IMG/VR virus record: IMGVR_UViG_2636415673_000002 | DNA length: 16,446 nt | Origin: a virus | Taxonomy: Duplodnaviria; Heunggongvirae; Uroviricota; Caudoviricetes | Strand: one strand, 5' to 3' | Shown: positions 1-15,899 of the stretch, piece after piece | How positions within the stretch are numbered: position 1 is the first letter of the stretch | How the letters are laid out: every line of letters begins with the position of its first letter | Translations under genes and position numbers: made by a program | The notes under the pieces: generated by a model | Database searches by the model: none | Told to the model about the DNA's origin: nothing | What the model saw: the letters and a program-made list of their open reading frames with translations, nothing else

Positions 1-792
1 ATGCCATTAAATGGAGTCAGTGCTGCGATGCGCGAACGGGTATCGCAGCAGTTAAAAGAAATAGAATGTCGCTATGGCGTGAAAGTGCTGTACGCCTGCG
101 AATCAGGCAGCCGCGGCTGGGGATTTGCCTCGCCCGATAGCGACTACGATGTACGGTTTTTGTATGTCCATCCGCTGGAATGGTATCTGCGTGTAGAGTC
201 ACCGCGCGATGTTATCGAACTGCCTATCGACGACGAGTTAGATGTTTCCGGTTGGGAGTGGCGTAAGGCGCTGGGATTATTGAAAGGCGCGAATCCGACG
301 CTAATAGAATGGCTGGATTCTCCGGTGGTCTATCAACAAGATGAAGAAACGATAACGGCGCTTAAGGCAATGGTGCCAATGTGGTTTTCTTCGTTGCGTG
401 CACGCTGGCATTACTATTCGATGGCGCAGAAAAACTTCCGCGGCTATTTGCAGGGCGATGAAGTTCGACTGAAAAAATACTTTTACGTGCTGCGTCCGCT
501 GCTGGCCGTGCGCTGGGTCGAAGCGGGTAAAGGTGTGCCGCCAATGCGCTTTGCCGAGTTACTGGCGGGAAGCGAGCTTGATGCACCGTTACGTGCAGAA
601 ATAGACGAACTGCTGGAACGTAAACAGCGCGCGGGAGAAGCGGAATATGGTCCGCGCCGTCCTTTGTTACATGCGTTTATTCGCGCGGAGCTGGCGCGTG
701 GGGAAATTCCGCCGATTTTACCGGACAGTCGAGATGGAGATGTTCGGGAGCTAGATAATTTGCTGTATCAAACGGTAATGCGCCGGGCATAA
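1..792 (+). CDS. Pol-beta superfamily nucleotidyltransferase domain protein, function unknown
   Basis: 263-aa ORF with an N-terminal minimal NTase motif (ESGSRGWGFASPDSDYDV, i.e. GS-x9-DxD) followed by a helical C-terminal region. Convergent with the tail cluster and followed by a hairpin terminator. Family-level call only, from the motif. Confidence 0.6.
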   Translation: MPLNGVSAAMRERVSQQLKEIECRYGVKVLYACESGSRGWGFASPDSDYDVRFLYVHPLEWYLRVESPRDVIELPIDDELDVSGWEWRKALGLLKGANPTLIEWLDSPVVYQQDEETITALKAMVPMWFSSLRARWHYYSMAQKNFRGYLQGDEVRLKKYFYVLRPLLAVRWVEAGKGVPPMRFAELLAGSELDAPLRAEIDELLERKQRAGEAEYGPRRPLLHAFIRAELARGEIPPILPDSRDGDVRELDNLLYQTVMRRA

Positions 793-801
793 AGCCCGGC
801 G
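781..801. terminator. Bidirectional intrinsic-terminator-like hairpin between convergent genes
   Basis: Perfect 8-bp GC-rich inverted repeat cgccgggc / gcccggcg (781-788 and 794-801) with loop ataaa. The NTase stop codon (790-792) lies in the loop. On the + strand it is followed by a T-rich run (tgatttatt). It sits in the 13-bp gap between the two convergent ORFs. Confidence 0.5.
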
Positions 802-805
802 TGAT

Positions 806-1261
806 TTATTGCTGGTATTGCCAACTGCTGACTAAAGCGTACAAGTGGTTTGGAGAATAGCGCCAGCTTTCCTTCAGTTGCAGAAATTCAGCACAAAATT
901 CACTGCAAAACAGGCGATCGCGCTGTTCTTTATTACCGGTAATAATTCCTAATGCTCCGCGCCAGTCATATTTTTTGCCATCATGTTTACGGAAAAAAGT
1001 TTCCACATCCTGAAGGCTGGCCTGGAGCGGCAGCATATCCCACTTATCCGCTGGCAATGGCATTATTTTTCCGCGTACACCGCGATCGCGCAGTGATGCG
1101 GAGTAACAAAGGTAACTCTTTTCACCATGCTTAATGGCTAATTCACAGTGGGAATAATGACCACGTGTGATTTTACGGGTAAGCCAGTCAGCCAGTCGGG
1201 CAATACCACGGTGCTCTGTTCGGCCCTTATAACAAGCGAGCCAGACAGTGGTTTTACTCAT
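806..1261 (-). CDS. YiiX/YaeF-like permuted papain-fold (NlpC/P60 superfamily, Peptidase_C92-like) hypothetical protein
   Basis: 151-aa ORF whose ATG overlaps the stop of the upstream tail-fiber-assembly-like gene (ATGA at 1258-1261), so it is the last gene of the tail operon. Contains a His-before-Cys arrangement (GHYSHCEL near residue 33, then LFCSEFCAEF near residue 118) that resembles the HS-YSH and YCSE motifs of E. coli YiiX as I recall them. No signal peptide. Assignment is by motif memory only. Confidence 0.4.
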   Translation of the reverse strand: MSKTTVWLACYKGRTEHRGIARLADWLTRKITRGHYSHCELAIKHGEKSYLCYSASLRDRGVRGKIMPLPADKWDMLPLQASLQDVETFFRKHDGKKYDWRGALGIITGNKEQRDRLFCSEFCAEFLQLKESWRYSPNHLYALVSSWQYQQ

Positions 1262-1863
1262 GGTTGCCAGCCTGTTGAATAATCGTAGTCGAGCACCGCC
1301 TGAATATCGTCCAGTGCTTCCACCGCCGCGATATGGTGCTGGGCATTGGCGAACAGGCGCATATCGTGATCCATGGTGACCGATTCAAACTGGGCGGCGA
1401 TTTCGTTGGTTAACTCGATCAGACCGTTATTTTTAGTTTTCCACATTAAACCTGGAGGGATTTTTTTCTCCGCTCCCATTTTAGTGAGTGAAAGCTGTTG
1501 GATACGGCTATTTGTATCACTGTGGAAGTGATGGTTGTTGATGATGATGCAATCTACTGTTATTTCATCACGTCGATTTTTTATTTCCTGTGTAACCTGA
1601 GCCTTGGTATTCTCCAGTGCAACGGTAAATAACGTCTTGTTATACACCCATTTATCATCCTCTAAGATATAAAAGTTATCCGGAGGTGGCGTAGTGATAA
1701 TTTTGAATGGGTCAAGACATATCCAGCATGGTTTATCTTTTAACTGCCACTGCTCATCATCTACAGGAATTACTGAATCAGGTAATTCCACAGTAAAAGA
1801 GGCTGCATCTATCCAGTCAATAACCTCAAAGGTTACCGGATGGTAATACGCATATCGTGTCAT
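1258..1863 (-). CDS. Tail fiber assembly (Tfa-like chaperone) protein
   Basis: 201-aa ORF immediately downstream of the tail fiber gene with a 4-bp gap, the usual position of P2 G / lambda Tfa-type chaperones. GC content is clearly lower than the rest of the cluster (about 40 percent in sampled stretches). Call is mainly positional. Confidence 0.5.
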   Translation of the reverse strand: MTRYAYYHPVTFEVIDWIDAASFTVELPDSVIPVDDEQWQLKDKPCWICLDPFKIITTPPPDNFYILEDDKWVYNKTLFTVALENTKAQVTQEIKNRRDEITVDCIIINNHHFHSDTNSRIQQLSLTKMGAEKKIPPGLMWKTKNNGLIELTNEIAAQFESVTMDHDMRLFANAQHHIAAVEALDDIQAVLDYDYSTGWQP

Positions 1864-1867
1864 CTGT

Positions 1868-3637
1868 TCACCATAAAATTTTTATATAACCACCCAAGCC
1901 ACGACCGCCATTGCGGGCAACGTGGTTTACCCAAGTTGATCCTAAACCAGCCCCTCCCCCACCTCCCGCCCCATAACCAGAGCCGGATTGACCATCACTA
2001 TTCGCTCCTCCCAAGCCCCCTTTTCCATAAGGAGTATTTACTGCAGTTTCACCGTTGCTGGAGTATGTTTTGGGAACCTCTCCTACTGAGTTGGCGTGCG
2101 GGGAGTCGATAGTTATGATTTTACCTCCCCCCCCACCAGCACCGCCGGAAGCACTCTGTGAAGAAAAATGTGATGCTCCTCCTGGAATACCTGCTTGCCC
2201 CATTGCATCTTCGGGAATCCATCCCGGACCACGCTCTGGTATCACCTGTGTACCTCCAGCCCCTCCAGCCCCTCCGGACCCAACTGTAAAGGAATACATA
2301 TCTCCGGGTTTAACTGTGAGAGAGGCAATTATCAGTTCACCGGGTTTTCCTGCTCCGCCGCCTAGTCCAAATTTTGGATTCAGCATTGTCGAGCTTCCGG
2401 CGACTGCCCCACCTCCACCGCCCCCTCCGCCGCCTGACATTTCCAGAAGTATTTCTGTCACTCCAGCTGGCACGGTAAATGTTCCATTTGATGTATAGAA
2501 TCGGAATGAGGAATTGTTAATCCTGCTATATGCCTCACAGGCTTTATCATACGCCGCCTTCACCGCGCTCGGTGTCGCCGCCTCCGTCGTACTGTTGCTA
2601 TCCGTCGCGTTATTAAGCTTCACAATCCCTTTTTGCGACAGGGTGCCGTCTGGAACACCCGTAATCTGTCCCCATGGGTGAGTATGGTTTCCCGCAGCCT
2701 TACTATTCGCCAGGTCATATGCCGCCTTCACCGCGCTCGGTGTCGCCGCCTCCGTCGTACTGTTGCTATTGGTCGCGTTATTAAGTTTCACAATCCCTTT
2801 TTGTGTCAGGGTACCGTCAGGAATACTCGTAATCTGTCCCCAGGGGTGCGTATGACTACCCGCAGCCTTACTATTCGCCAGGTCATATGCCGCCTTCACC
2901 GCGCTCGGAGTCGCCGCCTCTGTAGTGCTGTTGCTATTGGTCGCGTTACTAAGCTTCACAATCCCTTTTTGCGTCAGTGTGCCATCTGGTATATCAGTAA
3001 TCTGACTCCAGGTATGACGATGATTTCGAGCCTCAATCAGTGCCGCTTTCACCGCTTTTGGCGTAGCCGCTTTGGTTTCGTCATCACTGTCAGTGGCGTT
3101 ACTCAACTGCGTAAAGCCTTTTTGTGTCAATGTAGCATCAGGGTGGTTAGTCGAATGTTCGTGTTCATCCAGTTGCGAATCGACGTAATCCCGTGTTGCC
3201 AGCACAATACTGGGATCAACGGTGAGTGTTACCGCAGTCGTGTTGGACACTTCCATAATGAGACGAATGCAAACTTGCTTACCGCAGCCGCCGGGTAATA
3301 GCGGTTTATACGACTCCGGGAATTTACCGATAGCAATGAGTTCACCATCGGTATCAAAAACGCCGACTTCACGTATATACCAGCCGCCGATATTTTCGGG
3401 CAGTACAAGTTCCGCAATTAACCAGCTAGGATTATTGGGCGCAACTGTTAATGTATTTAAATCACCGCGCCAGACCTCATGGCGTAATTTAGTTTGACTC
3501 GCCGTGGGTTCATAATATTGCCCACCGCCGTCTCCAACGGCCATCTTTTGCAGATGCAGTTGTTTTTTATCCGCAAGAGCACTGGCAATTTTTGCCATCC
3601 CTCTATTGGTCAGGAGGGTATAAAATTCATTATCCAT
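1868..3637 (-). CDS. Tail fiber protein (P2 gpH-like N-terminal domain, repeat shaft, glycine-rich C-terminal tip)
   Basis: 589 aa. The N-terminal roughly 160 aa carries P2 gpH hallmarks (MAVGDGGG, HEVWR, IAELVLP, ESYKP, ATRDYVD). Residues about 163-370 are 3 to 4 copies of a 56-aa repeat (TLTQKGIVKLSNATNS..TEAATPSAVKAAYDLANSKAAG.HTHPWGQIT), each with an HxH motif. Residues about 376-589 contain multiple polyglycine tracts. ATG at 3637. Confidence 0.85.
   Translation of the reverse strand: MDNEFYTLLTNRGMAKIASALADKKQLHLQKMAVGDGGGQYYEPTASQTKLRHEVWRGDLNTLTVAPNNPSWLIAELVLPENIGGWYIREVGVFDTDGELIAIGKFPESYKPLLPGGCGKQVCIRLIMEVSNTTAVTLTVDPSIVLATRDYVDSQLDEHEHSTNHPDATLTQKGFTQLSNATDSDDETKAATPKAVKAALIEARNHRHTWSQITDIPDGTLTQKGIVKLSNATNSNSTTEAATPSAVKAAYDLANSKAAGSHTHPWGQITSIPDGTLTQKGIVKLNNATNSNSTTEAATPSAVKAAYDLANSKAAGNHTHPWGQITGVPDGTLSQKGIVKLNNATDSNSTTEAATPSAVKAAYDKACEAYSRINNSSFRFYTSNGTFTVPAGVTEILLEMSGGGGGGGGGAVAGSSTMLNPKFGLGGGAGKPGELIIASLTVKPGDMYSFTVGSGGAGGAGGTQVIPERGPGWIPEDAMGQAGIPGGASHFSSQSASGGAGGGGGKIITIDSPHANSVGEVPKTYSSNGETAVNTPYGKGGLGGANSDGQSGSGYGAGGGGGAGLGSTWVNHVARNGGRGLGGYIKILW
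2528..3151 (-). repeat. Tandem 168-bp (56-codon) repeats inside the tail fiber shaft
   Basis: Near-identical DNA copies begin at 2553, 2721 and 2889 (period 168 bp), with a diverged copy near 3042. They encode the phage tail-fiber repeat with HxH motifs. Confidence 0.8.
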
Positions 3638-3639
3638 AA

Positions 3640-4272
3640 TTACTCCGGGTAAATAGATGTAATTTCAAGGCTCCATTGCCCTGTTCCGTAATAGATTGAT
3701 GTGTTTTGCTGTACTTCCCGTATCTGGAAAGGTAAAACCGACGTCAGTTCACCACCATAAAGTGCACAACCAATAACAGGAATAGCACTTTGGTTAATGA
3801 TCCAGACAATTAATGCTTCCAGTTTTGAACGTGTGTTTTTATATTCATGAATGAGTTCTACCAGATTATTGAAAAGGTTTTCATCCATGCCTTTATCCAC
3901 CAGCTCTATATCAACCTTAAAAAAATAAGCCTTCCCCCCATATTCAAACCATTCTGAAATAGTTCCTGGTAATGAGAGTATTTCCAGCACCCGCCGTACC
4001 GCCCAAATCGTTCCTTTATATTTATGCAGCTCAATGGCTTGCTTAATTAGCTCGCGCTTCTCCCGTTCATCGGTGGTAAATAACCAACCTTCCAGCCCCT
4101 GAACGTGAAATTGTTCTGCAAGGGCTGGTAATGCCGAAGCATCAACCAGGTCGACCAGATAAACCATCAACGCCGTAAGATCGAGTTGGGCAAAACGCTC
4201 GGCGGCGATATTTGCCAGAATCGAAAAACGCTCATCGCTGGCAAGCGGCGGCGGTGGCAGCAATTTATCCAT
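3640..4272 (-). CDS. Baseplate/tail protein I (P2 gpI-like)
   Basis: 210-aa ORF between the J-like gene and the fiber gene. Start overlaps the J stop by 8 nt, and the fiber ATG follows its stop with a 2-nt gap. Size and position match P2 gpI. Confidence 0.75.
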   Translation of the reverse strand: MDKLLPPPPLASDERFSILANIAAERFAQLDLTALMVYLVDLVDASALPALAEQFHVQGLEGWLFTTDEREKRELIKQAIELHKYKGTIWAVRRVLEILSLPGTISEWFEYGGKAYFFKVDIELVDKGMDENLFNNLVELIHEYKNTRSKLEALIVWIINQSAIPVIGCALYGGELTSVLPFQIREVQQNTSIYYGTGQWSLEITSIYPE

Positions 4273-5380
4273 CGCTAACTCCGGCGATCGTTACGTCTAT
4301 TGCAGTGCATTCCGCCCATTCATGCGCCTGCAAAATACGTTTTGTAGGCAAGTTCAGCACAACGTCATAGACGCCATCGACCTGTAACACTTTGATTATC
4401 TGGTTTGGCACAATGTCCTGCCCCAGATGTTTCTGCCGCTGTTGCGTCCAGAGGCTAATCGCTTTACGCGCCGCAGCCAGAGTTGTCTCCTGATCGGCGG
4501 TGGTAAACAGCGTTAGCTGCGCACGGATCTCATACGGCACTCGAAGAGCGCATTTCGCACTCACTTTGTCGGTCAGCGGACGTTTTTTCTCCTTGCTAAC
4601 CTCCTGTTCGATTTGCGCGAGCAGTTCTATTCCCGGCAGTCCGTTCAGGGTTAGCGGGTAGATCTCCACGCAGCCTTCTGGCAATCCCTCGTCCGGCCCC
4701 AGTACTGCAACGTCAATAATCGACTGGCTTACGGAAAGCGTATGAAAGCGGTAGGCACCATAGCTGCCCGCATTACTAAAGCTTTCTGGTGCCAGTTGGA
4801 TACGCTGGCGCAATGCGTCATCGCTCTCTTCACCGCAGCCGCCCGTTGACGCAGTCAGGTTGATTACGTTGATGTCATAATGACCAATCCTGTCGACCAG
4901 AGCGCTAATTTGTGCAGGCTGCCAGCCGTTACCCTGTTCACCTGCTGCGAGGCTGGTGGCAGGAACGGCGATATGCAAACTCCTGGCCGGGAGCAGAACA
5001 TCTTCATCGGTGGCGAACATCACGCTATCAGAGGCACTGGCCCGCGTCCCCTGGGGAATCAGGATATTGCTGGTATACGCACTGACAACCGAAAACTGCA
5101 ACGTCGTTTTTGCTGACTGCGCAGGCAAACGATGAACGCCCACCAGCTCCCCTAAATAATCCAGCATTGGCGCGCGGGAATACGCGACCAGGTTCTGTTT
5201 CGCCGCTTCCTGAATGGCGATGCGTACAAGGTTTTCACGATAGGCAAAAAGGTCAATCAGCAACCGCTCGGCCTGTGCCGGGTAGAGCTTTTTGCCGCTG
5301 GCATCTTCGTATTGCGCAATCATCTCGCTGGTAATTTGCGCAGGATCGCGTTCAATAAAATTGGGTTCGGCTATCGCCAT
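4265..5380 (-). CDS. Baseplate J-like protein (P2 gpJ / T4 gp6-like wedge)
   Basis: 371-aa ORF with a GGAGG Shine-Dalgarno upstream of the ATG at 5380. Positioned between the W-like and I-like genes as in P2. Confidence 0.8.
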   Translation of the reverse strand: MAIAEPNFIERDPAQITSEMIAQYEDASGKKLYPAQAERLLIDLFAYRENLVRIAIQEAAKQNLVAYSRAPMLDYLGELVGVHRLPAQSAKTTLQFSVVSAYTSNILIPQGTRASASDSVMFATDEDVLLPARSLHIAVPATSLAAGEQGNGWQPAQISALVDRIGHYDINVINLTASTGGCGEESDDALRQRIQLAPESFSNAGSYGAYRFHTLSVSQSIIDVAVLGPDEGLPEGCVEIYPLTLNGLPGIELLAQIEQEVSKEKKRPLTDKVSAKCALRVPYEIRAQLTLFTTADQETTLAAARKAISLWTQQRQKHLGQDIVPNQIIKVLQVDGVYDVVLNLPTKRILQAHEWAECTAIDVTIAGVSDG

Positions 5381-5730
5381 AACACCTCCGTTGAGTTGAT
5401 TACGCCGTCAGCGGCGCGCCATTGCACACGTAACGTCAGATGTTCACCGTCGATTACAGGTGTCACCTTCAGCAACCGGCAGCGCGGTTCCCACTGGCGG
5501 ATGGCCTCTACCGACTCCCGTACCACATGCGGGATCGCCCGCTCGATGGGATAATCGATGTAGTGCCACAAATTGCTGCCAAACAGCGGTCTGTGGGGAT
5601 CACTGCCGCGCGGTGTACGCAGAATGATGTGTATTGCCTGGTGAATATCATCCAGTCCGCAGACGTATTCTTCAGGCCGCTGCAAGGCCGGTTGCCAGTG
5701 CAGCGTTGAGGGGCGTGTTTTTGTGTTCAT
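5371..5730 (-). CDS. Baseplate protein W (GPW/gp25-like)
   Basis: 119-aa ORF containing a gpW/gp25-type motif (IHIILRTPRGSDPHRPLFGSNL). Lies immediately upstream of the J-like gene with a 10-nt overlap. The RBS is weak. Confidence 0.75.
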   Translation of the reverse strand: MNTKTRPSTLHWQPALQRPEEYVCGLDDIHQAIHIILRTPRGSDPHRPLFGSNLWHYIDYPIERAIPHVVRESVEAIRQWEPRCRLLKVTPVIDGEHLTLRVQWRAADGVINSTEVLWR

Positions 5731-5789
5731 GAGGGTATTTTCGCCCTGACCGGGCTGTGGAGATATTAAAGCGATTTAGAAAACTGATT

Positions 5790-5825
5790 GATTAAAAAGA
5801 GAAAACCCGCTATCAGGCGGGTTAA
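5790..5825 (-). terminator. Intrinsic terminator-like hairpin between the spike (V) and W genes
   Basis: Minus-strand RNA reads AACCCGC-CUGAUA-GCGGGUU followed by UUCUCUUUUUAAUC. The 7-bp GC-rich stem (plus 5804-5810 and 5817-5823) starts 5 nt after the V stop codon. Confidence 0.5.
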
Positions 5826-5828
5826 AAG

Positions 5829-6530
5829 TCAGTGTGAATGGTGGTTGGAGTTGCCACCGCTGTCCTGCAATGCGCCGCTGGCCTGAACGTTGCCGATCAC
5901 GTTGACATTGCCGGTTATCGTGGCGGCGTTACCGATGCCTCCACTTCCTGCCATCCCACCAAGCCAGGTGAGTTTTTTCATCACCGTGACGTTGCCGGTA
6001 AAGGTACTGAGCGGTGCGTCTACCGTTACAGCCATCGCTTTAACATCGACCTTACTGGCTTCAATGCTGACGTCGGTGGCTTTCACATCAACAGTGTCGG
6101 AAGTCACGGTGACGTGTTGGGCTTTAACCTCAACGTTGGGCGATATCAGGCTGGTACGGTCGATAACCTCAATCACGATTTTTTCGATACCACCGTTAAT
6201 CGTAAGCTGGTGGGTGCTGCGGTCATATTCAAACGCTGCGCCATCGGAAAACTGGACATAGCGTTTGTCGCGCGATGCTACTGGCGCGGTATCTACCGTT
6301 GAATATACTGCGCCCAGCACCACGCCATCTTCACCGTTATCATCCAGCAGAACCTCCACCTGCTCTCCCATGTCCGGTAGCCAGTAGTCTTTATTGTCCT
6401 GGGAATTGCGTTGAAGTACCGCAAGCCAGTTGCTCTTCAGATTGTCACACTCTGGAAGCGTGACTCGCACCCGAACGCTGGTTTCGTCAATATCGCTGAT
6501 AATCCCCGTTTGCCGGGTTACTCCTTTCAT
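5829..6530 (-). CDS. Baseplate spike protein (P2 gpV-like)
   Basis: 233-aa ORF with a strong AGGAGG RBS. N-terminal OB-fold-like region followed by a repetitive beta-helix-like segment (VxVxA repeats, e.g. VDVKATDVSIEASKVDVKAMAVTVDA) and a His-rich C-terminus (NHHSH), consistent with metal-binding spike apexes described for P2 gpV. Confidence 0.8.
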   Translation of the reverse strand: MKGVTRQTGIISDIDETSVRVRVTLPECDNLKSNWLAVLQRNSQDNKDYWLPDMGEQVEVLLDDNGEDGVVLGAVYSTVDTAPVASRDKRYVQFSDGAAFEYDRSTHQLTINGGIEKIVIEVIDRTSLISPNVEVKAQHVTVTSDTVDVKATDVSIEASKVDVKAMAVTVDAPLSTFTGNVTVMKKLTWLGGMAGSGGIGNAATITGNVNVIGNVQASGALQDSGGNSNHHSH

Positions 6531-6539
6531 ATTTCCTCC

Positions 6540-7580
6540 TTACTGGCTGGTCGCTGGCCCGCGTGACACGTCGATTTCAGTGGTATAGCCGCTGCGCACA
6601 AAACTGTGAGTAGATTTATCAATCAGCCACTGACCGGAAAGCACGCCAAAATCGGTCAGTTCAATTTTATTGCCCGCCGTCAGTTCCGGGCAGCCCATCA
6701 TTGTGAGCGTTCCGGTTTGCTGATATTCGTTGTGGCTGTCGAGTGCAGCGTTGGCCTTTGCCTGTGCTGCGCCAATGTCCGTCGCCCGACTGTTCAGTTT
6801 TAGCGTGTCGGCACTGGTGCCGACTCCACGGGCAGACGGTTTTTGCTGGCTGTCGTGGGTGTAGATAACCAGTTCTTTTTTCTTACTATTTTGATGCTGT
6901 ACGGTGGCGTTTTTGTAGATACGGTTAATGGTATCTTTGAAGGTGAAATGCGAAACGTCTTTGCGGTCGATCGTTTTTACCGGTGCCAGGCAGCGCAGCG
7001 TGGGTAAATGTGAAAAAATCAGCTCTTTTGTCGTCACTTTTACGGCATAACCATATTCACTGGCCAGACGTTTGAGAAATCCAACATCGGTTTCACCATA
7101 CTGCGTTACCCGGTCGATGGTGAGCGGCTCGATTTTGCCCACCAGTTTCAGACCGTGCGTTTGCGCGATACGGCTGGCGATAGCCGAAAGCGTCGTCTCT
7201 TCAAAGCCCTGGCTGTTACGCGTGCGTAGCGCCTGATTGACGGAAGTGGCGATGCCATCAATATTTACCGTAGAAGGTGGCGATGAAATATCAATTTTAT
7301 CAATAATATACTGACCACAATCGAGCAGCTTTTCCCCCTGATAACCCATATGCAGCGCCAGCGTATCGCCTTTGCCGGGATACCACTCTTTTATCCAGCG
7401 TCCATCGGTGTCATCCAGTGTAATCGCGATGGTATCCGACTCGTTTTTAATACTGTCCTGGTAACTGATGCTGGTGACATAAGGCGTGATGTCATAAGTG
7501 ATATCTTTATGCCCATACCAGAGGGTAAAAATGGGCGTGAGTGTTGCAAAGACGCCGCCAGTTACGCTTATCTCAGCCAT
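6540..7580 (-). CDS. Tail hub protein (P2 gpD-like, late control gene D family)
   Basis: 346-aa ORF immediately upstream of the spike gene. Size and position match P2 gpD. Confidence 0.75.
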   Translation of the reverse strand: MAEISVTGGVFATLTPIFTLWYGHKDITYDITPYVTSISYQDSIKNESDTIAITLDDTDGRWIKEWYPGKGDTLALHMGYQGEKLLDCGQYIIDKIDISSPPSTVNIDGIATSVNQALRTRNSQGFEETTLSAIASRIAQTHGLKLVGKIEPLTIDRVTQYGETDVGFLKRLASEYGYAVKVTTKELIFSHLPTLRCLAPVKTIDRKDVSHFTFKDTINRIYKNATVQHQNSKKKELVIYTHDSQQKPSARGVGTSADTLKLNSRATDIGAAQAKANAALDSHNEYQQTGTLTMMGCPELTAGNKIELTDFGVLSGQWLIDKSTHSFVRSGYTTEIDVSRGPATSQ

Positions 7581-7777
7581 GGTGGGATCTCCGATAAGGT
7601 TTTATTGACGGAAATGACCGGAATGATGAGCTGAATACCGGAAGGCAGTACCGGATAAATGGCGACATGTGGATTGGCTGCGATAATGCGTTCATAAGCC
7701 AGTGCATCGCCGTAGTAATGCCAGGCCAGGTTATCCCAGCGTTCGCCATCGGTGGTGATATGTTCAAGGTATCGCAT
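7568..7777 (-). CDS. Tail protein X (P2 gpX-like, LysM-like)
   Basis: 69-aa ORF with the gpX-like pattern (W-x-YYG ... AANP ... VLPSG..L.IP). Start overlaps the gpU-like stop, and its 3' end overlaps the D-like start. Confidence 0.7.
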   Translation of the reverse strand: MRYLEHITTDGERWDNLAWHYYGDALAYERIIAANPHVAIYPVLPSGIQLIIPVISVNKTLSEIPPWLR

Positions 7778-8730
7778 TACCAGCTCCTCGTAATGGTCGC
7801 GGCAGCAAGCTGGCTCACTGCGGGAGTGGTTTGTTGTACCGTTGTTCGTGCCTGATCAACCAACGTTGCGGCTTTATCAAACGTCGCTTCGGCGATGTTG
7901 CTGGCAATGTCGTCGAAAAGTGTCTGAGCATGGTCAACCAGCGTACTGGCGTCATTGGCGCAGTCCCGTATACCTGGCATGTTACCCAGTAAAGCTTTAA
8001 TCTGAGCCGACAACGCTTTTGGGAGTCCTGCCAGCATTTGCAGATCCATTGGCTGTTTAAACAGGGTTTCGATGGCGTCGATAGTCTTTTTCAACGACGT
8101 AATTATCTTTTCACACTTTTCTTTTAACGCTTTGGCCTCTTTAATCAGTGCTTTCACTTTTGCCACTGTTTTTTTAATATCTTCAATGGTTTGCGCCAGT
8201 TCATCGAGCATCTCTTTGGCTTTGCGCATACCTTCTTCAATGGCGTTCAATATCTGATACAACCAGGACTCCACCTTATTCGGAAAATCGCTCGCCTTTT
8301 CCTCGATATTAGGCTCCTGGGTGGTAATTGCCGGGGGCAGCAGTGGGTTTTTCGGATCGCCGGTATACTCCTGGAGCGACATTGTTCCGCTTTGGGCAAT
8401 GACATTGCCCCAGGGATCGGTGTGCTGGTGAGTGGCGGTTAACTCTGTAATTACAAACCAGCCGCGATAATCTCCGTTGCCAAACACCAGCGCCATTGCT
8501 TTGTGAGCAAGCATGGCTTCACGCAGTCGATTCAGCTCTGTTGTGGGTTGGCAAAACTGGCTGTGCAGGGAAAATTCCAGCGCCAGCATATCCAGCTTAT
8601 CGCCAATAAACTGCACGCCGGGTTTGCCTTCTATACGGGCATGTGTGGCGTAATCCACGCCCATTGTGCTTTTAAAGCCGTCCCAGAATGTGACAACTTT
8701 AAATTCAATCTCTCCTAAAACGGCATACAT
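7777..8730 (-). CDS. gpU-like tail protein with long C-terminal coiled-coil extension
   Basis: 317 aa. The N-terminal roughly 130 aa resemble P2 gpU-type tail proteins. The C-terminal roughly 180 aa are Lys/Glu/Ala-rich heptad-like sequence (KAKEMLDELAQTIEDIKKTVAKVKALIKEAKALKEKCEKI), predicted coiled coil. ATGA overlap with the tape measure stop. Confidence 0.55.
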   Translation of the reverse strand: MYAVLGEIEFKVVTFWDGFKSTMGVDYATHARIEGKPGVQFIGDKLDMLALEFSLHSQFCQPTTELNRLREAMLAHKAMALVFGNGDYRGWFVITELTATHQHTDPWGNVIAQSGTMSLQEYTGDPKNPLLPPAITTQEPNIEEKASDFPNKVESWLYQILNAIEEGMRKAKEMLDELAQTIEDIKKTVAKVKALIKEAKALKEKCEKIITSLKKTIDAIETLFKQPMDLQMLAGLPKALSAQIKALLGNMPGIRDCANDASTLVDHAQTLFDDIASNIAEATFDKAATLVDQARTTVQQTTPAVSQLAAATITRSW

Positions 8731-11081
8731 CAGGCATACCCCCGGCGCTGCTGCTGCGCCATTACATCGTTAATCATTCTTTCCAGTTCGCGTTTACTCA
8801 TCGTCAACACGTTCTGAATCTCTTTAGTGGTGTTTTGTCCGTTACCCTGCACGGTAATTTGTGGCGAAAAATTCACCTGGACTTTTCCCGGGGAACGGGA
8901 GGGTAGCGTCGCCGGTTTGGTTACGGATTTACCAGGTAAAGAGGCCGACGCGGGTTTTGCCGATGACGGCGTAGCCGTTTTGCCGGATGGCGCGAGTTGT
9001 TTGCCCACCGGCAGCGTTAAAATCGCACCGGCAACGCCTGGAACAACGGTCGCGGGGGAGACTGATGCGGTATTAGCCGTGCCTGTAACAGCCGCAGCCG
9101 ATGCTTCTGTGCTGATACCCATTGTGGCTTTTAGCCAGTCTGGCATGGCGTTTTTGACCTGATCAATAATGCCTTTCAGTGCGGGGAAAGCATTCATTAT
9201 GCCGTCGGCCAGGCTACCCAGTATATTGCTGCCGAACTCGCTAAAACTCGCAGGCATCTCAACACCAAACCAATTCATCACATCGGAAAAGGCGCTATAG
9301 AACAACTCCAGCGGTGACCAGTCGAGAATCAACCGACAAATTCCTGCAATGCCGCCGTCAAAGGCCGTGGTGATACGTTGCCAGATGGTCGAAAAGAACC
9401 TGGAGATAGGTTCCCAGTTGCGATAAATCAGATAAGCCGCGCCCGCAATCGCAGTGATGACCAGACCAATGGGATTCATCAATAACACCCGGCCTAGCGA
9501 GAGAACGGTTCGACCAAACAGTTTCAATGCTCCGATCAGGCCACGACCAAGCAGTTGCGTTAGCCATTTTGCGCCGCCACCCAATGACTTAACCGCCGAT
9601 AGCACTTTACTTGCCGCGCCGCCGAGGGCCAGACTTGCCCTGACTTTCAGGAAGATATCGACCAGACGAATAAACGGCGAGGCGATGAGGTTCGCGCCCA
9701 GCTTTAAAACATTAAGCGCACCGTTAAACAGCCAAATCGCCCCGACGATTTTCGCAATGTTTTGCACCAGCGCCGGATGTTCGCGTAGCCAGGCACTGAA
9801 CTGGCGAATAACCGGCGCAAGGCTTTGTGCCAGCTCGCCAATCGCCGGCATAAGCTGCAAGCCAATGCTGAGCCATAAATCATTTAACGCCAGTTGTAAC
9901 GCTTTAGTCTGTTCAATGGGCGAGGCCATTTGCGCAGAAAAGTCAGCGTTAATCAGATTCTTGCTGGTAGTTTGCATGGCAGAGGCTTTTAACTGGCGAT
10001 ATTCCTCCATATTCGCCAGCATAGGTGCCAGGAATTCCACCGTTTGCGCATCGCCGAACATTTCGCCCAGATTAAATTGCGCCACCATCGATTGCAGCGC
10101 AGTGCTGCGAGCAGATAAATCTTCAATCTGCATAGTGCGTTTGAAGGTGTCGAGGATCGCCGGATTCATCTTCTCAAGCTGCATTTGCACGATATGAGTC
10201 ATGGCTTCGCTAACACTCATACCGTTTTGCTGATGTTCAAGCAGAGAGCCTTGCAAATCGACGCCCTGGCTGGCGAACCAGCTATCGGTTTTTTTCGAAA
10301 AGGTGGTTTGCAGAAAGTGGTCAAAATTCTCAGCCGCCGCACTGGCGCTGGCCCCGTTTTTCATGGCGATCTGCATGGCGGCAGTCAGTTCAGTCATACC
10401 TTCCAGACCCTGAGCGCCGGTTTTACCTGCAAATTTGTCTATCCACTGCGTTTGCTCGGCAACGGCAGGCCCACCGCTTTTGCTAATGCCGTACATCATG
10501 TTTTGCGCGGCGTGGAAATTTTCTGGCGCAATATTCAGTCGATCATGGGTTGCGAGCGCGGCATTCGCCCATGTTTCAGCACTTTCGCGCGTGGCGGTGG
10601 CAGCTTTGGCGATCTCCGGCATATAACGGTTGAGATCCTGTATCGACGACAAATTGCCTTCGATCAGCGTTTGGGCTGCGTTCTGTAAGGTGGTCTGATG
10701 CTGGTTAAAATCCATGCTCCAGTCGCGCAGATTAAGGCTGAGCGTCTCGCGGGTTGTATCATTCATCCCACCTTTGGTCGCCATATTGACCATGTTGTCC
10801 TGGAACTCATACGGCAACTTCCAATCGGGGGCTTCAACATTGAATACTTTGCTAAATTGCCCGGCAAATGTGTGGGTTTTCTCCATCAGATTAGCGCGGC
10901 TGCGGCTATTTTCCTCCAGGCGGAGAGCAGAATCGGCAAGTTGCTGCGTTAGTTTGATTACTGTCGCTTGCTGAGAAGAGAGAGCTAACAAAGTTCTGGC
11001 GTTGAGTGAGCCGTAACGGGCTATTGCCTGCGTCAACGTCTCATTACGCGCCTGAAGCTGGGTAATAATATCGTTGGCCAA
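8730..11081 (-). CDS. Tail tape measure protein
   Basis: 783-aa ORF, Ala/Gln/Leu-rich and alpha-helical, with hydrophobic glycine-rich segments in the C-terminal half. Located between the chaperone and gpU-like genes. The first start-type codon after the upstream in-frame stop is TTG at 11081, so the exact start is uncertain. Confidence 0.8.
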   Translation of the reverse strand: MANDIITQLQARNETLTQAIARYGSLNARTLLALSSQQATVIKLTQQLADSALRLEENSRSRANLMEKTHTFAGQFSKVFNVEAPDWKLPYEFQDNMVNMATKGGMNDTTRETLSLNLRDWSMDFNQHQTTLQNAAQTLIEGNLSSIQDLNRYMPEIAKAATATRESAETWANAALATHDRLNIAPENFHAAQNMMYGISKSGGPAVAEQTQWIDKFAGKTGAQGLEGMTELTAAMQIAMKNGASASAAAENFDHFLQTTFSKKTDSWFASQGVDLQGSLLEHQQNGMSVSEAMTHIVQMQLEKMNPAILDTFKRTMQIEDLSARSTALQSMVAQFNLGEMFGDAQTVEFLAPMLANMEEYRQLKASAMQTTSKNLINADFSAQMASPIEQTKALQLALNDLWLSIGLQLMPAIGELAQSLAPVIRQFSAWLREHPALVQNIAKIVGAIWLFNGALNVLKLGANLIASPFIRLVDIFLKVRASLALGGAASKVLSAVKSLGGGAKWLTQLLGRGLIGALKLFGRTVLSLGRVLLMNPIGLVITAIAGAAYLIYRNWEPISRFFSTIWQRITTAFDGGIAGICRLILDWSPLELFYSAFSDVMNWFGVEMPASFSEFGSNILGSLADGIMNAFPALKGIIDQVKNAMPDWLKATMGISTEASAAAVTGTANTASVSPATVVPGVAGAILTLPVGKQLAPSGKTATPSSAKPASASLPGKSVTKPATLPSRSPGKVQVNFSPQITVQGNGQNTTKEIQNVLTMSKRELERMINDVMAQQQRRGYA

Positions 11082-11169
11082 AATTGTTTCTCTTATAGAT
11101 TGGTGATGGCCCGCTGGTTAGTTTTCTGAAAAATGGGCTGGGAAGAAATAAACCTGGCGGGCTTTAAAG

Positions 11170-11196
11170 GACTCGCAGACATCAGGTCTGCGAGTC
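11170..11196 (-). other. Perfect 11-bp stem-loop in the chaperone/tape-measure intergenic region
   Basis: gactcgcagac-atcag-gtctgcgagtc. On the minus RNA it is followed by CUUUAAAG, which is only weakly U-rich. Candidate attenuator, RNA stability element or frameshift-associated structure. Confidence 0.45.
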
Positions 11197-11269
11197 ATAT
11201 TCGATCTTTATTTGAGCGCTGGCTTCATCCAGCCAGTTGCTAAAGTCATCGACGGTAAGGGCGTCTATC

Positions 11270-11587
11270 TCACTGGGCGGAAAGCGAAACCATCTCGCCA
11301 GTAACGCCATTGCCTGCCATAGCAGGGGAGGATTCTGTAACCACGGTAAGCATGGATTGAAATCGTTTCTGCAATGCCTGGTAATCCAGCAAATCCATTT
11401 CAGCTAAATCTTCTGGCACCAGTCCGGTCATTGCCGCCATTAGCGGTTCATCCCACTCTTCTGGCTTTTCGCTGATCCGGCGCGCGTTGCGCATATCTTT
11501 TACTTTCAGGCGACGTAATTGCAGAGTGTTAATTACGTCTCCCGCCGCTGAAGTAAACGGGAACTGTAAGATATAATGCTCTTTCAT
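11270..11587 (-). CDS. Tail assembly chaperone (P2 gpE-like)
   Basis: 105-aa acidic ORF between the tube and tape measure genes, the canonical position of the E/E-prime (G/GT) chaperone. AAGGA RBS 7 nt upstream of the ATG. Confidence 0.6.
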   Translation of the reverse strand: MKEHYILQFPFTSAAGDVINTLQLRRLKVKDMRNARRISEKPEEWDEPLMAAMTGLVPEDLAEMDLLDYQALQKRFQSMLTVVTESSPAMAGNGVTGEMVSLSAQ

Positions 11588-11613
11588 TTTGTATCCTTAT
11601 TTATTTTGCGAAG

Positions 11614-11633
11614 TTCGGGGCCGTAGCCCCGAA
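11614..11633 (-). other. Stem-loop between tube and chaperone genes
   Basis: ttcggggc-cgta-gccccgaa (8-bp stem) directly after the tube stop codon. No U-tract follows on the minus RNA, so it is not a classical terminator. Possible RNA processing or stability element. Confidence 0.35.
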
Positions 11634-11637
11634 TAAC

Positions 11638-12162
11638 TTAGCCACCGATGTTATTGCGATAGGTACTTAATTGATCCACGCCGTTAACCCGAAAAATATT
11701 CGCCATATAATCAAGTTCAAGCAGCGTTTCACCATCGACCACTTGTTTAATATAAGTGCAACCAAAGGCGCTGCTGAATTCCGGGTTTTCATTTTGTTTA
11801 AATGTTCCCAGTGGATTCTTTTTAAACATGACAGTCAAATGAGTGACTAACGCTAATTGATTCGCTTTCCCCTGGGAGTTATAGCAATCAATACTGGAGC
11901 GGCACTGTAATGCTACCGCCTGCCACGGGTTTGCCGTTTTACGCATGACGTCCTGATAAAAGGAGTTCCATTTAATTTCCCCTTCCAGTTTATCGAACCC
12001 TGCCGGGAGTTCGATTTTGCCGACCATGCCCAGTGCTTTATGCTCCTGCATAATTAAACTGACATCCGGCAATTTAATTTCGGTTGCACGACCTAAAAGG
12101 TTATTACCATCGAGATAAATATTTGCGTTGGTAATACGGTTAATTTGAATTTTTCCAGCCAT
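11638..12162 (-). CDS. Tail tube protein (P2 FII-like)
   Basis: 174 aa. The C-terminus (ELDYMANIFRVNGVDQLSTYRNNIGG) matches the conserved VNGVD...R.NIG end of P2 FII tube proteins. TAATG overlap with the sheath stop. Confidence 0.85.
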   Translation of the reverse strand: MAGKIQINRITNANIYLDGNNLLGRATEIKLPDVSLIMQEHKALGMVGKIELPAGFDKLEGEIKWNSFYQDVMRKTANPWQAVALQCRSSIDCYNSQGKANQLALVTHLTVMFKKNPLGTFKQNENPEFSSAFGCTYIKQVVDGETLLELDYMANIFRVNGVDQLSTYRNNIGG

Positions 12163-13583
12163 TAGCTATTGCTCTCCAGAGAGACTAAATATTCAGAAGT
12201 AATTTCAGTTTCAAACGTCAGACGTTCCAGCGGCGGCGGCGGGGTGAATTTATAGCTAAGCAATAAATGCCCAGCGCTGAGTTCAGTCGGTGAATTTCGC
12301 GCCGGATCGTACCAGCACTCAAAGCCAAGCAGTGCGCCGTCGGCAATCAGCTTACGGCCCCAGGTATTTACTGATTCGGTCAGGGCATCAATCAGCGCCT
12401 GATTAATCGGCATATCAATATACTGCTGACTGAAATAACGGATTGACTCATTAATTACATCGCCTGTCCGGCGGACGTTTTCAAAGTTACGCATATGGGT
12501 CACGGTAGGCCATGCCGCTGTGCGGTTGCCCCACAAGCGCAGACCAGAGCCGTAACTATTGAAAATAGTGGTAATGCCGTTTTCGTTGAGCTGATTCACT
12601 TCGCTTTGAGGATCATCAATCATTGCGGAAAGCGAACGTTCAATACCGGTAATACCCTGAATTTCCTGGTTTGAGTTGCTCCACCAGAAACCTTTTTCGA
12701 GGTCTACTTTGGCACGTAGCCCGGCAGCGCGCGAAGAGAGCGGTTCGAGAACTTCCTGGTTAGTGATGCCATCGTAAACTTTGACGTGTGGGTAACATAA
12801 ACGCGCACGATCAGAGCTGGTATTGAAGTTGATAGCGCCTTGCGAACTGCGTCCTGCCAATACCTGCTGGAATGTCGTCCCAATCGGGGCATCAATGTAG
12901 GTAATCGCACCGAGTTTTTCCGCTTGTGCAATCAGCTCGGTAGTTACTGATTTTTGCGTACAGAACACGGGAGCAAGCAGGATTTTGGCGTAGAAACCAT
13001 ACAGGTTATAGGTGTCCTGAAGGAGTTTCATCCCTGTGCGGTCGCCTGCGGTATTTACGGCACCGATAATATCGGCTGCGGTGACCTTTGTAGGATCAAC
13101 ATAGGTATACGTCGCGTAAACCTTCGCCCCTGCCGGGATTTCAGTTCCGGTACGGGTTATAACGCCATCTGCGGCATTAACATTGTAAGATGTATTTTTG
13201 TACGTAGTGGAACTGGTACCTGGTCTTAATATTACTGAACTTACTCCCGGATGAGCTAATTTAGCTTTATCGGCACTATTGAACGTAATGGTTTCATTGG
13301 CAACATGCAGTCCATGTTTTACCGGATCCAGCACATTAATTACCACCACCGTACCGGCACCGTGGTCATAAATCGCCTTCAGCGCCTGTGGGATCGTAAA
13401 GTTAGCCTGAGTTGAGCCAAACTGCGCAGCATCGCTTTCAGAAAGGCATAATGTTGGTTTATTTACCGGACCACAGGGGGCCGTACCGATTAAAGCGATG
13501 ACGGCGGATTTTACCGCTTTAACGGGACGCTGGCCGGTTTCAATTTCAATGGTTTCTACACCGTGCAGATAATTAGCTGCCAT
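12162..13583 (-). CDS. Contractile tail sheath protein (P2 FI-like)
   Basis: About 473 aa with sheath hallmarks (N-terminal YLHGVET, GLRAKVD.EKG, LWGNRT, C-terminal YKFTPPPPLERLT). The track ORF begins at a TTG at 13589. The ATG at 13583 with an upstream GGAGAGGA RBS is the more likely start. Confidence 0.85.
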   Translation of the reverse strand: MAANYLHGVETIEIETGQRPVKAVKSAVIALIGTAPCGPVNKPTLCLSESDAAQFGSTQANFTIPQALKAIYDHGAGTVVVINVLDPVKHGLHVANETITFNSADKAKLAHPGVSSVILRPGTSSTTYKNTSYNVNAADGVITRTGTEIPAGAKVYATYTYVDPTKVTAADIIGAVNTAGDRTGMKLLQDTYNLYGFYAKILLAPVFCTQKSVTTELIAQAEKLGAITYIDAPIGTTFQQVLAGRSSQGAINFNTSSDRARLCYPHVKVYDGITNQEVLEPLSSRAAGLRAKVDLEKGFWWSNSNQEIQGITGIERSLSAMIDDPQSEVNQLNENGITTIFNSYGSGLRLWGNRTAAWPTVTHMRNFENVRRTGDVINESIRYFSQQYIDMPINQALIDALTESVNTWGRKLIADGALLGFECWYDPARNSPTELSAGHLLLSYKFTPPPPLERLTFETEITSEYLVSLESNS

Positions 13584-13770
13584 GTACAATTTCCTCTCCG
13601 TTATTTTGTTCTTCCTGAGTGATGACAGAAGTCAGGTGATTGCGGGCAATCATGGTCATGACCCACTCGTTGTCTTCTGGCAGATCAATTTCACTGTTCG
13701 GCCACAATAAGATTTCTTGTCCGTCGGCAAGGGTGACGCCGCTTGCCGGGCCGTTGTAGATGTATTTCAT
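13573..13770 (-). CDS. Small hypothetical protein of the tail module
   Basis: 65-aa ORF with a GAGGAAA RBS. ATGA overlap with the upstream gene, and its 3' end overlaps the sheath start. No recognizable motif. Confidence 0.4.
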   Translation of the reverse strand: MKYIYNGPASGVTLADGQEILLWPNSEIDLPEDNEWVMTMIARNHLTSVITQEEQNNGEEIVHGS

Positions 13771-14222
13771 TCAGTTTCCTCGTAATTAACTTCCGTAAGT
13801 AGGGGAAGATCCGTGTTTTCCTGTTCAGCGATAAACAGCGAGCTGGTCGCCATTTCCAGGATGTAGCGGCAGAAACCGCCGCTCTCACCCGTATTAATTT
13901 CTTTTTCAAGCCAAAGAAGACGATCGCAATCAGGAAGCTGAAGGCCACCCAATGCGCTGCGTATGCGGTCCAGTGCGTTTAACGCATCACAATTTTTGCC
14001 AACAATAACGGTGGCGGTTAAGCGGAGCGTTTGCTGTTGCACGAGAGCATCACTGCTTTCAGGCATGGCAAATAGAGAACCGCTATAATTAATAATCACT
14101 GTAACTTGCTGCGTCTGCGGAATATATTTATGGGTATCAACCGATGAAATAGATACATCCATTTCGGGATTCTGTTCACGTAATCTGGTCACAACAGAAT
14201 TCATTACTGATAAAATTTCCAT
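13767..14222 (-). CDS. Putative tail completion / terminator-like protein
   Basis: 151-aa ORF with an AAGGAA RBS, immediately upstream of the sheath gene, where tail completion proteins of P2 gpR/gpS size are commonly encoded. Call is from position and size only. Confidence 0.4.
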   Translation of the reverse strand: MEILSVMNSVVTRLREQNPEMDVSISSVDTHKYIPQTQQVTVIINYSGSLFAMPESSDALVQQQTLRLTATVIVGKNCDALNALDRIRSALGGLQLPDCDRLLWLEKEINTGESGGFCRYILEMATSSLFIAEQENTDLPLLTEVNYEETE

Positions 14223-14339
14223 ATAGGGTGTTCCTTAATTATCGCTGATTCGTTAACGCTCACTTCGTTATCGTTGAAATGTATTCTGACGTAATGAAGG
14301 TGGAGAATCTTTTAATCTGCTTTAGAGAAAAAATTGAAT

Positions 14340-14654
14340 TTAATAGCTACCGCGTTGTAATAGCTCTATTTTGCTATATAAGGCATCCAGCTTTGCTTCT
14401 AATACTGCCTGGCCACGAAGATAATCTTCTCTGCGGACATAATGCAGCGGAAGCTCGGCACGAAATTCGAGAAATTCTCTTTCCAGTTTCGACCAACTTG
14501 TTTCTGATTCCCGGCGCGCGTTTTCCAGAGATTCAAAACGCTCATTAAGTCTTTTTTCAATTTGCGCTAACAGCAATTTTCCGGCAGCAAACATTAATCC
14601 AACGAAGGAAAGCATAAGGGAGATCACTTCCCAAAAATCGATACTGAGTTTCAT
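14340..14654 (-). CDS. Membrane-anchored coiled-coil protein, possible i-spanin (Rz-like)
   Basis: 104 aa with an N-terminal TM helix (FWEVISLMLSFVGLMFAAGKLLL) followed by a charged coiled-coil-like region. Directly downstream of the endolysin gene, with a GAGGGG RBS. Confidence 0.45.
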   Translation of the reverse strand: MKLSIDFWEVISLMLSFVGLMFAAGKLLLAQIEKRLNERFESLENARRESETSWSKLEREFLEFRAELPLHYVRREDYLRGQAVLEAKLDALYSKIELLQRGSY

Positions 14655-14666
14655 CGGCCCCTCTGA

Positions 14667-15272: not shown

Positions 15273-15274
15273 CA

Positions 15275-15562
15275 CTATAGCCCTAAGGCGACGGAAAGAC
15301 AGACGGCGGCAACGATGATGGCGCGGCGAATCATTGCCGCCGCGCAGCAACGCGGTTCCTTCCATGGGCTAAAAGAGTCAGGCCGTGCCCATGGGAACAA
15401 ACTGCGATCGAGCCAGTATCCCAGCACCGCGGAAAGCGAAACCAGGCTTAGTTTATAAATGACGACCGGGATCTGTGCTGAAGAGGTCCAGCCGATCACG
15501 ACAAACAGCGCGACGGAAGCGACCAGCCAACCGGAAAGCCGGGGAAGAGTGACTTTTTTCAT
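15275..15562 (-). CDS. Putative holin (small multi-TM membrane protein)
   Basis: 95 aa with 2-3 predicted TM segments. First gene of the operon with an AGGAG RBS 7 nt upstream of the ATG. Translationally coupled to the endolysin gene. Confidence 0.5.
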   Translation of the reverse strand: MKKVTLPRLSGWLVASVALFVVIGWTSSAQIPVVIYKLSLVSLSAVLGYWLDRSLFPWARPDSFSPWKEPRCCAAAMIRRAIIVAAVCLSVALGL

Positions 15563-15878: not shown

Positions 15879-15899
15879 TCGTGTAAAATGATACTCCTG

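Follow-up and report, generated by a model that had tools for sequence, protein, structure and literature searches.

A leaderless YiiX-like cysteine enzyme whose gene adjoins that of a tail-fibre chaperone in a headless contractile-tail island of Escherichia coli

The gene that closes the tail operon of the IMG/VR virus record IMGVR_UViG_2636415673_000002 encodes a small cysteine enzyme of 151 amino acids (aa) for which profile and structure comparisons support a circularly permuted NlpC/P60 papain fold, with the His first and the Cys last. The record was analysed over its full length of 16,446 nucleotides (nt), hereafter the window, and corresponds to a headless contractile-tail island of the Escherichia coli chromosome, the E. 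coli counterpart of the 'Def4' remnant of Salmonella LT2. The enzyme gene overlaps the gene of a tail-fibre chaperone and belongs to a family that keeps this position across Mu-like, P2-like and siphovirus tail modules. We propose, with a probability of roughly 0.55, that the protein is a late cytoplasmic acyl-thioester hydrolase or transferase performing an accessory step in the maturation or release of the fibre or its chaperone.

The maturation of tail fibres is thought to need chaperones only. Here, thousands of prophage lineages, as well as headless islands of E. coli and Salmonella, keep a conserved enzyme with intact catalytic residues tied to the chaperone gene. This points to a biochemical step, or else a host-directed activity, that has gone unrecognised within the host-recognition module. 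The interest of the family lies mainly in its size, its consistent placement and its lack of characterisation.

The protein resembles YiiX in fold

A search of the PDB with the single sequence returned only 3kw0, a permuted papain-fold enzyme from B. cereus, with an E-value of 1.6. A 59-member family profile (alignment A1) matched 3kw0 at E 3.7e-5 and YiiX at 0.69, and a 149-member profile (alignment A3) matched the same two entries at 2.8e-4 and 0.011, respectively, the full-length YiiX alignment obtained with A3 pairing the His, Tyr and Cys residues. Comparison with hhalign against a YiiX alignment gave a probability of 91.2% and an E-value of 1e-6; that alignment consisted of four clean sequences, most of the retrieved YiiX homologues being frameshifted fragments.

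An AlphaFold2 model built with the family alignment reached a predicted local distance difference test (pLDDT) value of 82.8 and a predicted template modelling (pTM) value of 0.79. Among its structural matches, with their scores in parentheses, were TseH (7.2), Aichivirus 2A (7.0), PLAAT4 (6.1), the MARTX RID domain (6.0) and a PPPDE deSUMOylase (5.8), all of which are permuted NlpC/P60/papain enzymes. Furthermore, a Foldseek search against BFVD retrieved uncharacterised phage proteins and one phage protein annotated as C92 (E 1.8e-4). The papain-like alpha+beta core is circularly permuted, the His-bearing strands preceding the Cys-bearing helix.

These profile-profile matches to 3kw0 and YiiX, together with the structure comparison, support the original prediction, drawn from the sequence alone, that the gene encodes a YiiX/YaeF-like permuted papain-fold enzyme. 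The relationship emerged from PDB profiles, hhalign and structure but not from Pfam, where the enzyme had no match to PF05708 (Peptidase_C92) at E<=1. Two of 59 family members touched PF05708 weakly (best E 0.0053), and the other Pfam matches of the 59 were noise. Since PF05708 is not reached, we describe the enzyme as resembling YiiX and not as a scored C92 member. The protein has neither a leader nor a hydrophobic segment (maximum 19-residue hydropathy 0.14) and contains five cysteines, and for these reasons we read it as cytoplasmic.

His, Tyr and Cys of the proposed active site are invariant

According to Xu et al. (2011), the catalytic set of permuted NlpC/P60 enzymes comprises a Cys, a His, a polar third residue, which is Glu64 in YiiX and BcPPNE, and a signature Tyr equivalent to Gln19 of papain (PMC3142127). 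Three of these four residues, namely the Cys/His dyad and the Tyr, are present in the enzyme. The motifs HYSHCEL and CSEFCAEF, from which the fold had originally been suspected, occupy residues 35-41 and 119-126. Conservation was counted over 149 family representatives that are mutually no more than 50% identical. His38, Trp74, Tyr98 and Cys119 were invariant, so that the His and Cys proposed at the outset are conserved in 149/149 representatives, as is the Tyr, and conservation was at least 90% at Ser37, Glu40, Ser56, Asp59, Gly61, Val62, Arg63, Ser120 and Glu121. Cys119, placed at the start of a helix by the AlphaFold2 model, aligns with Cys128 of YiiX and Cys154 of the 3kw0 protein.

The polar third residue was not found at its usual place: at residue 55, equivalent to Glu64, 122 of the 149 representatives have Ser and the other 27 have Ala, which is also the residue of this protein. 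The near-invariant Glu40, two residues after His38, or alternatively Asp59, may orient the His. In PPPDE1 a water molecule held by a Glu does the job of the third residue (PMC3142127), and in LRAT this residue is reportedly dispensable.

The enzyme gene adjoins fibre-chaperone genes in diverse tail modules

The enzyme open reading frame (ORF) starts with an ATG (1261-1259) that shares bases with the TGA (1260-1258) of the upstream 201-aa gene. This reading, and the DUF4376 match of the upstream product, bear out the ATGA translational coupling to a fibre-assembly gene that had been inferred at first sight. A crude consensus scan of the minus strand between positions 600 and 2200 of the window found no sigma-70-like promoter.

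To place this arrangement in context, the family ORF was compared with the nearest upstream ORF on the same strand in 82 related loci. The upstream stop codon lies within -13..+3 nt of the family start in 78 of them, the upstream ORF being of about 200 aa, and an ATGA (-4) overlap occurs in 47. The -13..+3 nt pattern is kept in 40 of the 43 clusters formed at 90% identity. Among 29 upstream representatives, 17 match DUF4376 and 6 match Caudo_TAP, and most fall into tail-fibre or fibre-assembly PHROGs.

The fibre-chaperone-enzyme order was found in SuMu, where com follows; in Pm86, in the middle of the module and ahead of the tape-measure gene; in Mcat25 and pAN; in AP1, where holin and lysozyme genes follow; and in a second E. 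coli prophage, which is unrelated and whose copy is 51% identical. It was also found in three distant metagenomic members, one of them P2-like, with the gene between the fibre genes and the sheath gene. Thus, the recurrence of homologues downstream of tfa genes, which had been put forward as a check, holds both in the 78 of 82 loci and in distant members. The features of the window that bear on the enzyme are collected in Table 1.

Table 1. Coordinates of the enzyme gene, its proposed active-site codons and the adjoining features in the window
Feature	Position	Strand	Evidence or remark
Enzyme gene, 151-aa leaderless permuted NlpC/P60 (YiiX-like) cysteine enzyme	806..1261	-	RefSeq WP_000047949.1; orthologue is Salmonella LT2 STM4198
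Cys119 codon (TGC), proposed nucleophile, start of helix 119-126 (FCSEFCAEF)	905..907	-	149/149
Tyr98 codon (TAT), NlpC/P60 signature tyrosine (oxyanion position), motif KKYDW	968..970	-	149/149; aligns with YiiX Tyr115 (GKPYDF)
Glu40 codon, candidate substitute for the third triad residue	1142..1144	-	Glu in 147/149; putative role
His38 codon (CAC), proposed catalytic base, motif YSHCE	1148..1150	-	149/149; aligns with His49 of YiiX and of the 3kw0 protein
ATGA stop/start overlap of the enzyme and chaperone genes	1258..1261	-	Sequence reading
Tail-fibre assembly/chaperone gene, DUF4376, 201 aa	1258..1863	-	Pfam DUF4376 E 1.1e-13; tail-fibre PHROGs 1807 and 2837
Tail-fibre gene, 589 aa: collar N-terminal domain, four fibre repeats, Gly-rich hypervariable C-terminal domain	1868..3637	-	Pfam PF12571, PF03406, weak PF21722
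GC-rich hairpin separating the enzyme gene from the convergent RlaP gene	779..803	+	Terminator scan

The enzyme follows the island backbone and not the fibre-specificity cassette

The mosaic structure of the module was examined by comparing islands whose gpJ is 95-99% identical to that of the window. Between these islands the enzyme (94-99% identity) and the C-terminal 100 aa of the chaperone (90-98%) follow the backbone, whereas the N-terminal 100 aa of the chaperone and the C-terminal 200 aa of the fibre are usually unrecognisable. A hypervariable specificity cassette, made up of the N-terminal half of the chaperone and the C-terminal ~200 aa of the fibre, thus spans positions 1560-2470 of the window. 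In other words, the specificity cassette consists of the fibre tip plus the chaperone N-domain, and the enzyme lies outside it, which argues against a function matched to one receptor. With its variable N-terminal half and constant DUF4376 C-terminal domain, the chaperone itself looks like a two-part adaptor, the N-terminal part binding the fibre and the C-terminal part remaining constant.

The GC content of the enzyme gene (46.9%) and of the chaperone gene (43.1%) is below the island mean of 49.2%, as had been remarked originally, but several other island genes are equally low, namely those of gpI (44.1%), the tube (42.1%), gp37 (44.7%) and a membrane protein (42.2%). The lowest value, 38.8%, belongs to the N-terminal half of the chaperone gene and not to the enzyme ORF. 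The further suggestion that the enzyme and tfa genes form a separately acquired low-GC cassette did not survive the comparison: the enzyme co-varies with the island backbone, and the mosaic breakpoint falls inside the chaperone gene. Given the GC content of the other island genes and the mosaic analysis, this origin is rejected for the enzyme gene.

A large and misnamed family under purifying selection

A word-indexed search yielded 89 close homologues of the enzyme, and an exhaustive profile search that admitted E<=1e-3 matched 4,492 clusters at 50% identity; 1,916 of these reached E<=1e-10. Almost all of these clusters represent stand-alone proteins of ~135-170 aa. Longer members were considered as domain fusions and rejected, since they are read-throughs or chimeras (with a sheath N-terminus, or with a lipoprotein/spanin-like tail). 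More than 540 IMG/VR contigs encode a relative. Among cultured-phage records, only ~25 of 50,697 carry a family member, the carriers being SuMu, three Pasteurella phages, eleven Moraxella Mcat phages, Pseudomonas phage pAN, Acidovorax phage AP1 and Ralstonia jumbo phages.

All 16 enterobacterial orthologues in IMG/VR are intact, and the median ratio of nonsynonymous to synonymous substitution rates (dN/dS) is 0.074 (61 pairs with dS>0.1). The gene is therefore real and under strong purifying selection in headless islands, from Escherichia to Salmonella.

Neither Pfam nor NCBIfam gave a match to the enzyme at E<=1, and the family is absent from both; the present profile thus defines a large family that these databases lack. 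The protein matches PHROG 1128, named 'enoyl-CoA hydratase/carnithine racemase-like', over residues 1-150 (E 4e-58), a membership that denotes a sequence cluster only, its name being unsupported. The 'enoyl-CoA hydratase' name, carried in GenBank, RefSeq and PHROG 1128, traces to the annotation of SuMu gp51 and of H. parasuis. PHROGs assigns the family to the category 'moron, auxiliary metabolic gene and host takeover', and PADLOC-DB defence models gave no match at E<=0.01. In the literature searched, no paper was found on this phage family or its linkage to the chaperone, STM4198 appears in gene-content tables only, and the accessible part of the SuMu genome and proteome paper does not mention gp51.

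Comparison with related enzymes

Structurally, the enzyme is closest to the YaeF/YiiX branch of permuted NlpC/P60 enzymes, of which it is a minimal core in a fixed niche beside fibre-chaperone genes. Like YiiX and the 3kw0 protein it has the His-then-Cys order, with a one-to-one alignment of the His, the signature Tyr and the Cys. The local motifs (Y/F)SH, (K/P)YD and CSE are common to the three proteins, and a GVR stretch occurs in 3kw0 (DDGVR) but not in YiiX. The enzyme departs from both in having Ser or Ala in place of Glu64, in being ~30-50 residues shorter and in giving no PF05708 score. Moreover, the retrieved YiiX homologues begin with a leader-like hydrophobic N-terminus, whereas the enzyme has no signal peptide; and it is phage-borne and coupled to a fibre chaperone, a setting in which YiiX and YaeF have not been described (PMC3142127). 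YiiX was crystallised with a bound fatty acid, has a hydrophobic S1 pocket and has been proposed to cleave N-acyl amide bonds (PMC3142127).

LRAT and PLAAT (H-RAS-like suppressor) and the picornavirus 2A H-box/NC proteins show a much weaker structural likeness. Unlike the enzyme, the LRAT/PLAAT and 2A members are membrane-anchored, and no relationship to them was detected at the sequence level. LRAT and PLAAT act as acyltransferases or phospholipases. The phospholipases also include Tox-Act1 and, probably, TseH (PMC12994826); both are secreted toxins of type VI secretion systems (T6SS) that act in the periplasm and have cognate immunity genes, whereas the enzyme has neither an immunity partner nor a delivery domain and adjoins a chaperone gene. 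LnsA, of the S. aureus LnsAB system, is likewise a YiiX-like permuted NlpC/P60 protein; it takes part in lipoprotein N-acylation, has been implicated in the transfer of acyl groups and works together with a partner protein (PMC7387801). Unlike the enzyme, LnsA is secreted by means of a signal peptide and encoded by a chromosomal housekeeping gene, and a CPBP-family membrane protein serves as its partner.

A papain-like domain within a tail module is also known from lambda gpK, which combines an MPN domain with a canonical NlpC/P60 domain whose catalytic role, in assembly of the tail or in infection, is undefined. It differs from the enzyme in its non-permuted order, its two domains, its essentiality and its place among tail-tip genes instead of side-fibre and chaperone genes.

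Proposed function and alternatives

In the proposed mechanism, Cys119, at the N-terminus of its helix, would act as the nucleophile, His38 as the base and Tyr98 as the oxyanion tyrosine. We favour an acyl-thioester hydrolase or transferase because the nearest relatives (YiiX, LnsA, Tox-Act1 and LRAT/PLAAT) handle acyl groups through a Cys thioester. By analogy with them, the reaction would most likely pass through an acyl-thioester intermediate and end in the hydrolysis or transfer of a fatty-acyl or peptidyl group, and the enzyme would not be a classical peptidoglycan peptidase. The absence of a promoter of its own and the translational coupling to the chaperone gene suggest that it is produced late, in the cytoplasm of the producing cell and in step with the chaperone. 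Since the enzyme goes with the constant part of the module, made up of the chaperone's DUF4376 C-domain and the baseplate genes, and is independent of the hypervariable tip of the fibre, its target should be a feature common to many fibre types. This could be the chaperone's constant domain, a conserved fibre segment or a lipid.

A more specific version of this idea, which we regard as doubtful, makes the chaperone an adaptor: its variable N-domain would bind the fibre tip, and its constant DUF4376 C-domain would recruit the enzyme for covalent editing of the fibre or chaperone, for example fatty-acylation or de-acylation of a residue, or removal of a chaperone 'cap'. If true, it would add to the maturation of tail fibres or tailocin fibres an enzymatic step not known before. 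Independently of this, the engineering of phage or tailocin fibres by swapping fibre and chaperone may need to carry or test the enzyme gene.

Several observations weigh against the favoured reading as a whole. At position 55, Ser or Ala stands in place of the canonical third triad residue, the promoter scan was a crude consensus search, and the prophage bias of the family fits a lysogeny-related role equally well. Nor is the association with the chaperone universal. In one contig (L016, IMGVR_UViG_2547132115_000004, 3256-5456) the enzyme gene comes directly after the fibre gene; only 71 nt separate the two and a chaperone gene is missing, and the enzyme can therefore persist without Tfa. Two further loci (L048 and L051) have a 234-nt gap upstream of the enzyme gene, and in the Ralstonia jumbo phages FLC1-1B (L095, 3995-4432), RP12 and RP31 the gene is isolated among hypothetical genes on the opposite strand and does not adjoin fibre genes. 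No natural chaperone-enzyme fusions occur among the top 150 representatives. Finally, the family is accessory, as its ~25 occurrences in 50,697 cultured-phage records indicate, and the DUF4376-chaperoned Alteromonas phages are not among its matches; the enzyme thus cannot be required for DUF4376 chaperone function in general.

A less likely alternative is a moron, lysogenic-conversion or self-immunity enzyme, encoded at the end of the tail operon but serving the host, which would remodel an envelope lipid, lipoprotein or lipopolysaccharide precursor from the cytoplasmic side and so block adsorption of related phages or of tail particles made by the cell itself. Its appeal comes from the location of the gene at the extreme end of the element beside the chromosome junction, a typical moron site, from the PHROGs category of the family, from its rarity in cultured, mostly lytic phages against its abundance in prophages and IMG/VR contigs, and from the gtrABC and hexapeptide acetyltransferase genes for surface modification carried by a Salmonella island; in addition, permuted NlpC/P60 relatives act on lipids. 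However, the gene has no promoter-like site of its own and overlaps a late structural gene by 4 nt, with coupling kept in 40/43 clusters; in Pm86 and two other loci (L091 and L088) it sits in the middle of the tail module and not at the prophage end; and its product shows neither a signal peptide nor a membrane segment. If the gene conferred a matched immunity, moreover, one would expect it to co-vary with the receptor-binding cassette, and it does not. We consider it improbable that the enzyme is instead carried by the particle, either on the fibre tip with the chaperone or as injected cargo, to act as an esterase, amidase or deacylase on the target envelope. An NlpC/P60-superfamily fold in a tail gene cluster would suit such a role, the permuted TseH and Tox-Act1 are delivered toxins of the T6SS, a relative of contractile tails, and some fibre chaperones, such as Tfa of Mu, do stay on the fibre tip (PMC10579305). 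Yet the 151 aa make up a bare catalytic core that lacks an attachment domain, the family showed no fusions to structural proteins, and five cysteines without a leader fit a reducing compartment. The enzyme is also not mentioned among the SuMu proteomics proteins in the accessible part of that paper, a weak point given the low depth of the data. Cargo genes usually lie in the neighbourhood of the spike or tube and not, as here, next to a fibre chaperone.

The enzyme gene lies in the fibre module, and a bacterial ubiquitin-like (Bil) system reportedly conjugates onto the central tail fibre of a phage; both points would suit a PPPDE/DeSI-like isopeptidase stripping from tail or fibre proteins the ubiquitin-like or other covalent tags that host defence systems put on them. 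We find such an anti-defence deconjugase highly improbable: the structural likeness to PPPDE is weak, PADLOC models gave no matches, and selection is strong in chromosomal islands that have no head, for which escape from anti-phage defence would bring no obvious benefit. An enoyl-CoA hydratase or carnitine racemase-like metabolic enzyme has nothing in its favour except the inherited database name and is refuted, since no crotonase match was found in Pfam or NCBIfam at E<=1, the fold is that of a permuted papain and the conserved residues are Cys, His and Tyr. The misleading annotation propagated through the databases is hereby corrected.

The headless island and its surroundings

The chromosome of E. 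coli 2021CK-01784 matches the window with 100% identity, and in it the island extends over ~15.6 kb from the enzyme stop codon to a divergently oriented Mor-family activator gene and is inserted between a slipin/RlaP-nucleotidyltransferase pair and lysC. Within the window the island occupies positions 806-16446, with the Mor activator gene on the plus strand (16099-16446) and the tail and lysis genes on the minus strand, in the order holin, SLT transglycosylase, membrane protein, gp37, sheath, tube, tape measure, baseplate, fibre, chaperone and enzyme. No head, terminase, integrase or transposase genes were found in the island. In more than 1,400 other E. coli genomes the flank homology ends at position 807, one base off the enzyme stop codon; the gene is therefore literally the last of the element, in line with the original prediction that it is the last gene of the tail operon. 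The hairpin at 779..803 reads as the RlaP terminator, on the chromosomal side of the island edge (~807).

The enzyme ORF is present in 203 of 5,426 complete E. coli genomes, each time adjoining a DUF4376 gene. In Salmonella, an orthologous headless island occupies the same lysC-yjbD locus and is the LT2 'Def4' remnant (STM4196-4219), in which STM4198 is the orthologue of the enzyme with 77% identity. The island is a candidate R-type tailocin. The tailocin papers found say nothing on it, it seems not to have been studied as a tailocin, and Def4 is described in the literature found solely as a prophage remnant.

The yjbD-lysC interval is a variable hot spot (window 1-807; L087, NZ_CP034738.1). 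About 1,600 E. coli genomes share the slipin gene and the RlaP-family nucleotidyltransferase gene (window 1-792), and where the tail island is absent a zeta-toxin family gene takes its place, before lysC. In Salmonella Infantis (L094, AFYI01000007.1), a gtrABC O-antigen glucosylation operon lies between the baseplate genes V and W (11748-14583), and a hexapeptide-repeat acetyltransferase gene (19772-20248) comes after the enzyme gene; the Salmonella remnant thus doubles as a carrier of surface-modification genes.

Three other regions of the window were noted. The stretch at 15600-16100, flanked by the divergent Mor gene and by the holin end of the tail and lysis operon, is intergenic and very AT-rich (GC 0.32-0.35) and is likely the regulatory region of the island. 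On the plus strand at 2055-3298, long antisense ORFs of 147 and 221 aa, rich in Pro and Arg, run against the Gly-rich and repeat sections of the fibre gene and look like shadow ORFs arising from biased composition, not genes. Lastly, a 190-nt gap (11081-11270) separates a tail-assembly-chaperone-like ORF (11270-11587) from the tape-measure gene, and in tail clusters of this kind the gap before the tape-measure gene is the usual site of a frameshifted chaperone extension.

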